27,206 nt of DNA. It comes from a virus. Lineage: Duplodnaviria; Heunggongvirae; Uroviricota; Caudoviricetes. Made by a program: the position numbers. Positions 1-6,000 of the stretch are shown one piece after another. Numbering within the stretch: the first letter of the stretch is position 1; each line of letters begins with the position of its first letter. The stretch lies in the IMG/VR virus record IMGVR_UViG_2695420523_000013. One strand, written 5' to 3'.

Positions 1-3000
1 GGTGTGTCATACACCACGTCAGCGGTGGGGACGGGATACTGGTTACTGCAGCTGCTGGACAAAGTCTCTCCGTCCCAGTGGGTGGCGATAGGTGTGCTGG
101 GGAGTCTGCTGTTTGGCCTGCTGACGTATCTGACTAACCTGTATTTCAAAATTAAAGAGGACCGTCGTAAGGCGGCGCGGGGAGAGTAAAGCGATGAAGA
201 AAAAATACGAACTGGTTGTTAAAGGGATAAATAATTACCCGGATAAGATTACTGTTACTGTGGCACTGGAAATTGGTGGGTATCCGTCACTGTTGTTGCC
301 AGATGTGGCGATTAGTCTTGACCGTACTGAAGGTGCCACGCTGGAGTTTTACGAAGCTGAGGCGAAAAAGCAGGCGAAGCAGTTTTTCATGGATGTTGCT
401 GCCGGGTTATGTGAAGGGGATGGTCCGTTGCCGGAAAAGCGGCCCCGTAATTTTAGAGGCGCAGGATGTGTTGATAACCTACAGAGGAAAACTACCGGGA
501 ATAATTACTGGTTCTCTGAAGACTCCACCGCTGGCCTGAAGACTTAACATATCCAGGGATTTGAAATCGATAAACCCTGATAAATATCCATGAACGCAAA
601 AATCAGATACGGCCTGTCGGCTGCCGTTCTGGCGCTGATTGGTGCAGGGGCGTCTGCGCCTGAAATCCTCGACCAGTTTCTTGACGAAAAAGAAGGTAAC
701 CACACCACGGCATACCGTGATGGTGCGGGTATCTGGACCATCTGCCGCGGTGCCATCCTGGTGGATGGTAAACCTGTCGTCCCGGGCATGAAGTTGTCGA
801 AGGAAAAATGCGACCAGGTTAACGCCATTGAACGTGATAAGGCGCTGGCATGGGTGGAGAAAAACATCAGAGTGCCACTGACCGAACCCCAGAAAGCGGG
901 GATTGCGTCATTCTGTCCGTACAACATTGGTCCCGGTAAGTGTTTCCCGTCTACGTTTTACAGACGAATTAATGCAGGTGATCGAAAAGGTGCCTGCGAA
1001 GCGATTCGCTGGTGGATTAAGGACGGTGGCAGAGACTGCCGTATCCGCTCAAATAATTGCTACGGTCAGGTATCCCGGCGAGACCAGGAAAGTGCGCTGG
1101 CGTGCTGGGGAATCGACAGATAAGCAGAATATTTTGCTGAAAAATGACGTTGGCCAGCGCGGACGGATAACACGAAATCCTGCGAACTGGCAAAATGTAA
1201 GTGAATAAAGTTAGGCAGATTATTTTACGCAGAGGCACCGTAATGGTGCCTTTGTCATTTCTGCGCTTCGCACAAGCGTAAATAAACCAAAGAACCTTTC
1301 AGGATGAGCCCTGGTGGATAACCGGCAGTGGTCTGGTTAACCCTCTTTGGGCTGGTTATTCCTGTGCGCAGGGTTCATCACTAAAAGGAATCAACCATGA
1401 AAGAGATGATTTCTGTCGATCATGAAATATCCATGAGTAGTCTGGATTTTCTGAATAACATTATTAATCCAGCCCGGGCAGAAGCCGGAGAAGTCCCTCA
1501 TGAACCGCGTAAGTTTCTTGCAAAAATTGAGGATGAGCTAGAGCGTGATGGAACCGGAAAAAAATTCCGGTTAAACAATAACCAGACAAGAACGGCATAC
1601 TATGATCTGGATTTTGACCAGATGATGCTCGTTGGCATGAGGGAGTCAAAGGCCGTTCGTCGTTCTGTGCTGGCAAGACTCAAAGCGATGCATGGTATTC
1701 AGATCCCCCGGACTTTACCTGAGGCGTTGCGATTTGCGGCAAAACTGGCTGAACAGAAAGCAGTGCTGGAAAATCAACTGGCAATAGCAGCGCCGAAGGC
1801 TGAATTTGTTGATAACTATGTTGGAGCATCTGGTCTGATGGGATTCCGGGAAGTTGCTAAGTTACTCGGTATCAAAGAAACCGATTTCCGGCTGTTTTTG
1901 TTGGAGAACGGAATAATGTATCGCCTCGCTGGAAAAATGACGCCTTACTCGCATCACCTGGATGCGGGGCGGTTTAGCGTGAAAACGGGCGAGGCGGGCA
2001 ATGGTCATGCTTTTACGCAGGTTAAATTCACCCCAAAAGGTGTTCAGTGGATTGCTGGTCTGCTTGCTGCATGGAGAGCTACCGCAGCATGAAGATGATA
2101 AAAATGGACTGGAAATTTTTGCTGGTCTGGCTGATTCCGTTTTTATGGGTGGTTGCCCGGTTAATTACTGCTATTAAGAGGTAAAGATGTCAGACAAACT
2201 CATAATGCTGGCGAAGGGCCTTTGTGTAATCGTCGGTATTTCATTTTCACTAATGCTGGTTGCTCTTTTTCTTTCCATAACCTGGATGGCGTTGACTTCG
2301 GCAGGGCTGGTGGGGTGAGCATAAACCGAATGCTTTCCACGTTTACCGTTATTCTGCTGGTGGTCTGTGGTGCGCTGTGGCTGGCAACAGACCATTACCG
2401 TGATAACGCCATCACCTACAAAGCGCAGCGCGATAAAAAAGCCAGAGAGCTGGAGCTGGCAAACGCAACCATTACTGACATGCAGCAGCGCCAGCGTGAT
2501 GTTGCTGCGCTTGATGCCAGATACTCAAGGGAATTAGCCGATGCGAGAGCTGAAAATGAAACTCTGCGTGCTGATGTTGCCGCTGGTCGTAAGCGCCTGC
2601 GGATCAACGCCACCTGCTCCGGTACCGTGCGTGAAGCCACCGGCACCTCCGGCGTGGATAATGCAACCGGCCCCCGACTGGCAGACACCGCTGAACGGGA
2701 TTATTTCATCCTCAGAGAACGGTTGATGACAATGCAGAAGCAGCTGGAAGGGGCACAGGACTATATCCGCACTCAGTGCCTGAACTAAGTTTTGCTGATG
2801 CGCCGTATCGTCGCTGTATTCCCTCATTAACAGAGACCGCAGCCCGACAGGGAGACTCCTCTGCGCGAGTGTGCGGGGATAATCAAAAACGATACACACC
2901 GGGGTTTACCGCGTTAACGGAGCGCGGCGTTGTCCCCTCATGGTCGCTGGTCCGGTACGATGGTGGAAGAAACCGAACGTTCATTTCTCGTTATTTGTCA

Positions 3001-6000
3001 TGCTGGCCGTACGCAGATGCGTTGCATCTGTTGCCAGCCTTCTCCTGCAGGCTTCAATAACCCACGCTGAAAAGTTACTGGACCCTTTATGCTCAAGGGC
3101 GATGTTGATCTGTTCAATCATGTGATTGGGGAAACGGATATTGCGGGTTGTGGTTCTGCGGGTCCGGTTTTTCGATGACATATTTATTTCCTTTACTGAT
3201 TGCCATATGACGGGGATTTTACATGGCTGAGCTTCGTACACTCCAGAGCAGAATCAAAACACTGAATACCCGACGGGTGAATATTCTGAAGGGGGAACAG
3301 CGTCGTGTCAGTGGCAGTGCACGTGTTTCCCTCAAGCGTCATATCTGGCTCAGGGATGCCGGGCAGTGCTGTCTCTGTGGTCGTGTGGTTGACCTCTGTG
3401 ACAGTGAACTCGATCACCGCATTGCACTTCAGTTCGGTGGTGGTAATGAGGAGACGAATCTCTGGACCCTCTGTACCGAATGCCATCGACAAAAGTCTGC
3501 TCGTGAAGCGGCGGGTGGTATGCCGGACCCGACGCTGCCGGAGGTAGTGGCAGAGCGGACGACATCATCGGACTGTAACCCGAGCGGGGGGGGTATCATC
3601 CGGCGTGAAAAACGATCGCTCCGGACACCGCCCCCCGTCTCATGCAGAGAAAAAATTCCTGTTTCAGGCCAGTTAACATGTTAACTGGCTGCCCGGGCAT
3701 TTTTGCGGTTTTTATCTTTATTATTCAGTTTGTTGTGCGGAAAAAATGTTAACTGGCTTTTTCAGCAAATGTTAACCAGGCAGCAGTTAACATTTGCGGC
3801 ATGAGACGCCGGGAAAAATGGGCTGAACCATACCCGGCTGAGTGCGTTATGGACCCGGGAGGAGGCTGTGCTGACAACGCAAAAACGAAAATTTGCGCTG
3901 GCGCTCATGTCCGGGAAAAACAAAACAGCGTCAGCTATTGCCGCCGGTTATTCGGCGAAGACCGCCAGGGTTAAAGGCTCGCAGCTGGCAAAAGATCCGG
4001 AGGTGCTCGCGTTTATAGCCCGTAAACAGTGCGAAACGGTGGAGGTGGATGAGGTTCCTGTTTACCGGCAGAAAAAATCAGAGCAGGAGGATAAACCCCG
4101 TCGCCGTGAGGTGGCTGCAATACCACAGCCGGACGAAACAAATCCGGAGATGCCACCGCCCGTGGTGATATCTCCTGGTATTGAGTATATGGAGGACGGT
4201 CTTCCCGATCCGGTGAAAGCGATGGGGCGTCTTCTGGTGGAGAACATTAATACCGACCCCAGGCTGGCGCTGGATGCGGCTTATAAGCTGGCGCAGTTCA
4301 CGCACCACAAAAAAGGGGATGCCGGTAAAAAATCGGCAAAAGGTGACGCCGCGAAAAAAGCGGCTAACCGTTTTGCGGTGCCACCACCACCCCGCCTGGT
4401 GGTGAATAATGATAATGAGGGCAACGGATGATACCTGTGTGGAGCACGGCCTGCCCGGACTGGGCAGAGCGCCTGAAAAAGGGGCTGTCGATTATTCCGG
4501 CTCCGATTTATCCGGACGAGGCCGCACATGCCCTGGCGATTTTTAAACAACTGCGGATTGTGGATGCACCTGGTAGCCCGACGTTCGGGGAGTCCTGTGC
4601 ACCGTGGGTGTTTGACCTGGTGGCGGCCCTGTTTGGCTCCTATGATGCGCAGACCGGTGTACGCCATATCAAGGAAGTTTTTATCCTTATCCCCAAGAAA
4701 AACTCGAAGTCCACGCTGGCCGCGGGGATCATGATGACGGCGCTGTTACTGAACTGGCGGCAGGCGGCGGGTTACACGATTCTGGCCCCGACTGTGGAGG
4801 TGGCGGCCAACGCCTTCAACCCTGCCCGGGATATGGTACGACGTGACGATGATCTGGATGACCTCTGCCAGGTGCAGACCCATATCCGGACCATCACCCA
4901 CAGGGTGACGGACACCACCCTTAAGGTGGTGGCTGCCGATCCGAATACGGTGTCCGGTATCAAGTCCGTGGGGACACTGATTGATGAACTGTGGCTGTTT
5001 GGCAAGCAGTGCAAGGCGGAGGACATGTTACGTGAAGCCATAGGCGGCCTTGCCTCCCGCCCGGAAGGGTTTGTGGTGTATACGACCACCCAGTCGAATG
5101 AACCGCCCGCCGGGGTGTTCAGACAGAAACTGCAGTACGCCCGGGATGTGCGCGACGGCAAAATTCATGATCCGCACTTTCTGCCGGTGATATTTGAACA
5201 CCCTCCTGAAATGGTGGAAAGCGGGGCTCACCTGCAGATGGAAAACCTCGCCATGGTCAATCCTAATCTCGGCTATTCAGTGGATGAGGCCTTTCTGTAC
5301 CGGGAGTACCGTAAAGCCCGGGAAGCCGGTGAAGAGACATTCCGGGGGTTCATGTCAAAACACGCCAATGTGGAAATTGGTCTTGCCCTGCGCTCTGACC
5401 GCTGGGCGGGGGCTGATTTCTGGGAAGAGCAGGGCCGTTGTATCAGCCTGGACGATATCCTGCGTCGTGCTGATGTGGTGACGGTGGGGATTGACGGCGG
5501 AGGGCTGGATGATCTGCTGGGGATGTATGTGATTGGGCGTGACCGGGAGACCCGCGAATGGCTGGGCTGGGGCCATGCCTGGGCGCATGAAACCGCGGTG
5601 GTCCGACGGAAGAGCGAGGCGTCCCGGTTTCAGGATCTTGTTGCCTGTGGAGATATGACCATTGTCCGGCGTGTCGGGGATGACACGGCGGAAGTGGCGG
5701 AATATGTGCGTCGCATTCATGAGGCTGAGTTACTGGACCATATCGGTATTGACCCGTCAGGGGTGGGGCAGATTCTGGATTCACTGGCGGAAGCCGGGAT
5801 CCCCGACGGAATTGTGGTGGGGATAAGCCAGGGCTGGAAACTGGGCGGGGCCATTAAAACCACCGAGCGCAAACTGGCTGAAGGGGTGCTGGTGCATGGT
5901 GACCAGCCCCTGATGGCCTGGTGTGTCGGCAATGCCCGGGTGGAGCCTAAAGGTAACGCCATTCTTATCACCAAACAGGCCAGTGGACGGGGAAAAATTG

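Follow-up and report, generated by a model that had tools for sequence, protein, structure and literature searches.

A YlcI/YnfO-family gene with a predicted ribbon-helix-helix product holds a fixed slot beside the packaging genes of lambdoid prophages

The nearest described counterparts of the gene considered here are ylcI and ynfO, from the E. coli K-12 defective prophages DLP12 and Qin; further comparisons are offered by Arc and Mnt from the immI region of phage P22, by the bor-type morons of lambda, and by Rpp from Gram-negative phage-inducible chromosomal islands (PICIs). Mnt is transcribed against its neighbours and is made in the lysogen, and bor is expressed from the prophage. We examined a 27,206-nucleotide stretch of Caudoviricetes DNA, IMG/VR record IMGVR_UViG_2695420523_000013 (the whole of which is called the window), where an earlier note had picked out a minus-strand gene for a 66-amino acid (aa) protein lying between the lysis and packaging modules. 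This open reading frame (ORF) was confirmed on the minus strand at 2981-3181, and its 66 codons predict the product MSSKNRTRRTTTRNIRFPNHMIEQINIALEHKGSSNFSAWVIEACRRRLATDATHLRTASMTNNEK; the longer span first given for it, 2981-3222, is the coding sequence (CDS) plus the 41-bp spacer at 3182-3222. The gene, called ylcI below, is an already named member of the catalogued and functionally unstudied YlcI/YnfO (DUF3950) family. It is under strong purifying selection, and it holds a fixed slot in cos-type lambdoid prophages, as the last gene of the right arm, where it runs counter to the late operon and diverges from the packaging gene that comes first.

The K-12 proteins belong to the same family and share about 87% identity with the window protein over residues 1-52; their genes occupy the same slot, after the lysis genes and before nohD/nohA, in the same orientation against the late genes. 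They differ in the C-terminal tail and in what lies beyond the start codon, the window gene being followed there by an HNH gene and a Terminase_2 small terminase, not by a Nu1-type small terminase across a 390-bp cos gap. Arc and Mnt are small ribbon-helix-helix (RHH) proteins encoded within a late-gene region, as is predicted for YlcI, and residues F10-N11-L12-R13-W14-P15 of Arc stand in register with the N-x-R-aromatic-P strand motif of YlcI; however, the divergent neighbour of ylcI is an HNH gene or cos/nu1, and not ant, the KilAC antirepressor (Ant) gene of the window lying 0.9 kb away on the other strand. The bor-type morons are found in the same Rz-cos region and in the same orientation against late transcription, but Bor is a lipoprotein that acts on the host surface, whereas YlcI is a predicted cytoplasmic DNA-binding protein whose position is far more constant than that of the adjacent cargo genes.

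The ylcI copies of the window, lambda, DLP12, Qin, O104, O157, 95JB1 and a plasmid prophage were compared over codons 1-50. They differed by 17-26 synonymous versus 5-8 non-synonymous changes, giving a ratio of non-synonymous to synonymous substitution rates (dN/dS) of 0.03-0.1 at a dS of 0.8-1.7 (lambda-type versus HNH-type, that is, diverged copies). Nucleotide identity among them was 79-85%, and the conservation is at the level of the protein, not of the DNA; the conservation on which the earlier note had made its proposal depend is therefore present, which excludes both an ORF that arose by chance and a mere linker for recombination. An 86-aa form starting at GTG 3241 was considered and rejected, since RefSeq has the 66-aa form in relatives and the family homology starts exactly at the ylcI ATG. 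The claim that this is the only minus-strand gene among the late genes also held: the remaining minus-strand ORFs of at least 90 aa in the window all overlap longer plus-strand genes, and YlcI is the sole minus-strand CDS from holin to tail fibre in the E. coli E110019 prophage, the nearest of the long relatives (95.9% identity over 25 kb). A 121-aa minus-strand ORF just downstream of ylcI (2534-2899) has a phrog_17757 match (E=3e-45) that is confined to the part antisense to Rz, and it therefore probably comes from a mis-called ORF family.

Homology among the ylcI copies begins exactly at the ATG and stops near codon 50, and two types of upstream context were found. In the lambda type (lambda, DLP12, O104 and pDCE7, with the same upstream sequence in Qin) the gene is followed by a gap of about 390 bp containing cos and then by nu1/terS; in the HNH type (window, O157, 95JB1 and E110019) the 41-bp spacer is followed by the HNH gene, cos and terS. 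The shared intergenic region described for the window was thus correctly drawn, with the divergent HNH gene starting directly at its far end. On the other side the ylcI tail and the downstream gene vary together, independently of the upstream and packaging type, and all combinations occur: the downstream gene may be TonB-like, PerC, a 46-aa ORF, YbcW/lambdap79 or the DUF1398 gene ydfO (Qin), and in the window there is only Rz. As the downstream neighbour changes with context, ylcI has no conserved partner gene, which agrees with the earlier statement that no toxin partner is evident next to it. What stays constant is position, the last gene before the packaging genes and pointing away from them; both slot and opposite orientation are kept in lambda, DLP12, Qin, O104, O157, 95JB1, the plasmid prophage and E110019.

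Membership of the DUF3950/YlcI type, which had been suggested for comparison, was established by scores above the cut-offs of both Pfam DUF3950 (PF13132; E=4.6e-20, 71.7 bits versus a cut-off of 25) and NCBIfam YlcI_YnfO_N (NF041551; 35.4 bits versus 30); the match to phrog_949 (E=1.6e-32) is to a family with no assigned function. The window protein carries the family motif I15 R16 F17 P18 ... N36 F37 S38 A39 W40 V41 I42 E43 A44 C45, whose columns I-R-F-P, NFS and W-V-x-[ED]-A-C are invariant or nearly so in the family alignments. Like the other stand-alone members (about 55-80 aa) encoded beside the terminase genes of enterobacterial prophages, it is small, and its gene lies 41 bp from the HNH-terS-terL block. 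Novelty is low, as the identical protein, from a prophage of E. coli UTME-3 (locus L001), is already named in RefSeq (WP_000095746.1, annotated YlcI/YnfO family protein). DNA similar to 2900-3300 was found in 1598 of 5426 complete E. coli genomes (about 30%), at 4543 places in all, with a median of 2 and a maximum of 10 places per genome; among 50,697 phage records, 155 encode YlcI, and nearly all of these are lambdoid coliphages. The description of the gene as an orphan was fair in that it has no partner, but not as an oddity of the window, since it belongs to a very common named family. The family is narrow nevertheless in protein space (102 clusters at 50% identity match among 1.84 billion representatives), and members down to about 30-40% identity across Enterobacterales retain the same motif pattern.

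A YlcI homologue of 64 aa is also intact in lambda itself (NC_001416; minus strand, 48109-48303, which is 2710-2904 of locus L086), with its ATG 199 bp short of the right cohesive end. The RefSeq record of lambda shows no CDS at this place, and in the tblastn listing the matching stretches of HK629, HK630 and DE3 are likewise without a feature. DUF3950 matches in Streptomyces, Cohnella, Pseudomonas, an Arcanobacterium "plasmid", "Campylobacter phage CJLB-4" and others came from contigs measuring either some 3.5 kb or some 48.5 kb; to us these sizes point to lambda control DNA, in the form of the 3.6-kb nanopore control or of the complete phage genome. YlcI/YnfO has also been reported, in two papers, from Arcanobacterium and Metarhizium. 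The 3,566-bp Arcanobacterium contig looks like such control DNA, and the same source is probable for the noisy ENA proteins P0028-P0120, whose contigs are also about 3.5 kb long.

The earlier note had proposed an RHH-like fold for the protein. The order of elements in YlcI (a basic arm, T-R-N-I-R-F, a P-capped helix, G-S-S-N and an F-S-A-W helix) agrees with the RHH consensus. An AlphaFold2 (AF2) model of residues 10-52, built from a 68-sequence alignment, had a mean confidence (pLDDT) of 76.9 and showed an extended N-terminus, a helix at 19-32, a turn of 4 residues and a helix at 37-51; DSSP called no strand in it, as would be expected of a monomer if the RHH sheet forms only in the dimer. 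The closest structural matches of this trimmed model were the NikR N-domain, Rv0298, ParD/PrpA, the CopG-family protein StnY, CdbA, SvtR, TraM-N and the PutA RHH domain, with 35-41 residues aligned; the full-length AF2 monomer (pLDDT 70) gave no Foldseek matches, and only the 10-52 model was informative. By hhalign the family profile aligned to Arc with T11-G33 on P8-R31, placing N14/R16/F17/P18 on Arc N11/R13/W14/P15 (P=0.0024, probability 12%), and Mnt aligned in the same register. Weak matches to HicB-type RHH models also speak for the fold. BLASTP of YlcI against Arc found no similarity, and phmmer and the family profile found no RHH match in the PDB. We consider the predicted RHH fold supported but not proven.

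In our preferred reading, to which we assign a probability of about 0.5, YlcI is a small regulator that binds DNA as an RHH dimer and that late transcription, running antisense to its gene, would silence. The RHH domain of YlcI, some 50 residues long, would carry a basic arm at its N-terminus and a short tail of variable sequence; as in Arc, Mnt and CopG, dimers would form through the N-terminal strand, and the ribbon face T12/N14/R16 would contact DNA. Its own promoter would provide it while the prophage is uninduced, and it may act there as a small transcriptional repressor or regulator, the nearest candidate targets being the ylcI promoter and, next to it, the beginning of the HNH/terS/cos region. 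Lytic read-through of the late operon would be antisense to ylcI, as had been noted before and as follows from gene geometry only, and should shut the gene off. Expression without induction is pointed to by the intact copies in DLP12 and Qin, by convergent ybcW and ylcI transcripts that overlap in 50% or more of the K-12 RNA-seq samples (PMC12288877), and by a DUF3950 gene that is measurably and differentially expressed in cultures of O157:H7 (PMC7709258).

Several results weigh against this regulator. The curated Pfam RHH models stayed below threshold (RHH_1 at E=0.24 in 1 of 74 members; HicB_lk_antitox at best E=0.022 in 4 of 74). The expression evidence concerns the homologues of K-12 and O157, not this prophage, and a literature search found no functional study of, or experiment on, any member of the YlcI/YnfO family. 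The palindromic operator candidates that had been suggested for the spacer were not obtained: an inverted-repeat search of 3182-3222 found none, the weak GCCATATGAC palindrome there is lost in O157-type relatives, and no cognate operator of the kind that RHH proteins use was identified near ylcI in the searched spacer. An 11-mer, ACACTGAATAC, common to the window and lambda-type ylcI upstream regions (E ~0.03-0.06), was rejected as an operator; it is lost in the HNH-type relatives O157, 95JB1 and L001, and was therefore treated as chance. The DNA upstream of lambda-type and HNH-type ylcI is unrelated up to the ATG, though the ribbon residues are identical. No convincing sigma-70 promoter was found for ylcI, the scan giving 2 sites versus 1.3 expected, and therefore not above chance; nor was an intrinsic terminator detected, as these scans were also at chance level and the fold of the 3' flank was not significant. 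An Rfam scan of 2000-4500 returned nothing.

A 25-nt inverted repeat of 76% identity (3135-3159/3248-3272) was seen to lie symmetrically about the ylcI/HNH spacer, spanning both coding regions. It arises because ylcI codons 8-16 (RRTTTRNIR) and HNH codons 9-17 (SRIKTLNTR) have similar in-frame DNA, and it was rejected as an RNA structure or operator, a stable RNA fold being absent (z=+1.5). The coordinates of these and the other features are collected in Table 1.

Table 1. Coordinates of ylcI, its signals and the neighbouring features of the window.
Feature	Position	Strand	Remarks
Lysozyme	590-1123	+	profile matches
KilAC antirepressor (Ant)	1397-2092	+	Pfam and profile matches
Rz	2222-2788	+	profile matches
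3' flank, Rz stop to ylcI stop	2789-2980		slot of varied plus-strand cargo in relatives: TonB-like, PerC, small hypothetical proteins
ylcI/ynfO-family CDS	2981-3181	-	66 aa plus stop; ATG 3181-3179, stop 2983-2981
Variable C-terminal tail, residues 51-66	2984-3031	-	tails differ among copies
Conserved core, residues 10-50	3032-3154	-	predicted ribbon TRNIRF, helix A 19-32, turn G-S-S-N, helix B 37-51
Divergent spacer ylcI/HNH, 41 bp	3182-3222		-10-like hexamer TAAAAT at 3217-3222 (-); weak GCCATATGAC palindrome
Shine-Dalgarno AAGGA	3189-3193	-	7 nt ahead of the ylcI ATG; assigned from sequence
HNH endonuclease, first packaging gene, divergent from ylcI	3223-3684	+	Pfam HNH, phrog_589; ATG at 3223
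Promoter-like site CTGACA-17-CAGAAT, 9/12	3283-3311	-	only consensus-like site upstream of ylcI; inside HNH coding region; weak, putative
Probable cos region	3587-3797		between HNH and terS; about 400 bp from ylcI start
Small terminase	3868-4431	+	profile matches
Large terminase	4428-6089	+	profile matches

Outside E. coli, members of about 30-45% identity in Serratia, Klebsiella, Xenorhabdus, Pectobacterium, Proteus and others sit in satellite-like islands, where DUF3950 stands alone on the opposite strand, flanked by int/alpA and the primase operon and in some cases with palindromes upstream; such a position is typical of repressors and favours the regulator reading. Satellite paralogues read opposite to all other satellite genes were located at 8590-8772 and 9001-9363 of locus L093, 4714-5103 of L004 and 6001-6429 of L005. 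In at least 7 protein clusters (P0189, P0206, P0218, P0219, P0221, P0249 and P0250) DUF3950 is fused to residues 1-53 of the Terminase_2 small-terminase DNA-binding domain, and this C-terminal part matches solved TerS DNA-binding domains; the helix-turn-helix (HTH) of P0206 is 66% identical to the N-terminus of the window TerS. Rpp is comparable with these fusions only: it too is a small satellite protein that includes a copy of the DNA-binding domain found in the small terminase of the helper; it has a winged HTH like that of lambda Nu1 and a dimerisation region of its own (PMC6739421). Unlike Rpp, the satellite fusions join a predicted RHH-type domain to a Terminase_2-type HTH, and the window YlcI has no terminase domain.

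One satellite is inserted within a close relative of the window. In E. coli CP027459.1 (L093, 2221-11046) an 8.8-kb integrase/primase/TerS satellite sits in terL of a prophage 96% identical to the window, at the point corresponding to window 4689-4702, TerL codons 88-92, in an IPKKNSKS motif that looks like a Walker A motif. Both junctions bear a copy of a CCCAAGAA core, and since the 3' part of terL does not regain a start codon, the gene is in two pieces for as long as the satellite stays integrated. Among the satellite genes are one for a 60-aa DUF3950 protein, with two TGGTACGTACCA palindromes ahead of it, one for a 120-aa fusion, with four GTT(T)AACAC repeats ahead of it, and a terS of the satellite's own; the YlcI gene of the host prophage is 3.2 kb away. 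An integrase beside TerL-fragment/TerS/HNH was also seen in L095 and L005, as in L093. Phage-type and satellite-type proteins are about 35-45% identical (20 of 47 and 20 of 37 aligned residues in two alignments), and predicted base-reading position 14 is N in the phage type versus G/N/K/H/A in the satellite type.

The 3587-3797 region contains five ATGTTAAC/GTTAACAT repeats in both orientations and, among them, a perfect 22-bp palindrome, GCCAGTTAACATGTTAACTGGC, at 3668-3689; its 3587-3666 part is 79% identical to a stretch upstream of the satellite's own terS. Judged from these sequence features, it is probably cos, with cosB-like TerS sites.

The alternative that survives best, while still unlikely, is that YlcI is a packaging-linked accessory which binds near cos and works with the small terminase or the HNH protein, and which may tune cos recognition or protect the prophage cos from cleavage. 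It would account for ylcI always adjoining cos or the first packaging gene, and doing so with two unrelated modules (the Nu1 type with its cos gap of about 390 bp, and the HNH plus Terminase_2 type), for the closeness of the ylcI ATG to the right end of lambda (199 bp), and for the fusion of DUF3950 to the TerS DNA-binding domain in at least 7 clusters. Those fusions are, however, found in satellites and not in phages, and RHH domains are promiscuous as fusion partners. An orientation against the late operon would be odd for a packaging factor of the lytic phase, and the function of lambda cos is contained in about 200 bp that exclude the ylcI ORF. In HK97, which has an HNH plus terminase cos system, no ylcI-like ORF lies between Rz and the HNH gene, and an essential role in packaging is therefore weakened.

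A more particular proposal, which we regard as speculative and improbable, makes YlcI the cos-proximal partner of a small-terminase DNA-binding domain, free in the phages and fused in the satellites. YlcI would then help to define the cos that is used, or silence the prophage cos and packaging start, and satellites inserted in terL of exactly this type of prophage would use their paralogue and fusion to sense the helper or redirect packaging.

Cross-talk between helper and satellite, with paralogous RHH proteins that share operators or heterodimerise and so affect satellite induction, immunity or phage defence, is decidedly unlikely as the role of the window gene. The diversity of the family outside E. 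coli lies mostly in int-alpA-primase islands, YlcI/YnfO appears in gene lists of Enterobacter PICIs (PMC13612085), and the satellite with two DUF3950 genes lies in terL of the 96%-identical prophage, which has a YlcI of its own 3.2 kb away; but the phage and satellite proteins are only about 35-45% identical and differ at predicted base-reading position 14, and most genomes bearing ylcI have not been shown to have such satellites.

It is very improbable that YlcI is an orphan antitoxin, left over from a type II toxin-antitoxin pair or encoded as one half only, and retained as an anti-addiction module. The weak HicB-like model matches agree with this, as does ydfO, which follows ynfO by 58 bp on the same strand in Qin (L088, 257-958), and in Qin only. 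A co-oriented partner is absent in the window, where the 3' flank leads straight to Rz, and in all contexts examined the downstream neighbour differs and is mostly on the opposite strand; no match of YlcI to PADLOC or to toxin families was found. RHH antitoxins bind the toxin through their C-terminal region, and no conserved region of that kind is present in YlcI, the tail at 51-66 being the most variable part of the family. The DUF1398 gene of DLP12, ybcV, is on the ylcI strand with the opposite-strand ybcW in between, and in lambda lambdap78 occupies the position matching ybcV; ylcI/ynfO and a DUF1398 gene may have been an ancestral two-gene unit. The weakest alternative, that ylcI is non-functional, either a chance ORF or a conserved DNA "boundary sequence" for recombination between phage modules, could draw on the conserved 150 nt with mosaic joints on both sides and on the tail and upstream types occurring in all combinations, but it is refuted for practical purposes by protein-level conservation at a dN/dS of 0.03-0.1.

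Some further features of the neighbourhood were noted. The KilAC gene sits within the lysis cassette, where relatives have Rha, KilA-N, a gene for an antirepressor N-terminal domain, or nothing; it is missing from most relatives, including lambda, DLP12 and L001. A 94-aa plus-strand ORF at 2776-3060 with a match to phrog_6954 ("Rz-like spanin") overruns ylcI antisense, and seems, by position, to be the counterpart of a hypothetical 74-aa gene that relatives have annotated behind Rz; the relatives carry about 600 bp of extra DNA, with the TonB-like gene, where this ORF runs into ylcI. The HNH ORF of the window is 153 aa long, versus 121 aa in relatives, owing to a frameshift near codon 108 (region 3540-3684): a 45-residue extension into the cos region replaces the last 13 residues, and the catalytic HNH part is intact. 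Near the frameshift is a G7-G9 run (3589-3596) whose length varies among relatives.

The gene examined here is widespread and strongly constrained, and it is fixed beside cos both in Shiga toxin (Stx) prophages and in lambda, while the literature assigns it no function. Were the proposed partnership with the small-terminase domain true, it would give a function to a conserved gene of lambda that is not annotated in RefSeq. The satellite paralogues, the TerS fusions and the insertion in terL, which are not properties of the window gene, could bear on how satellites parasitise Stx-type prophages.

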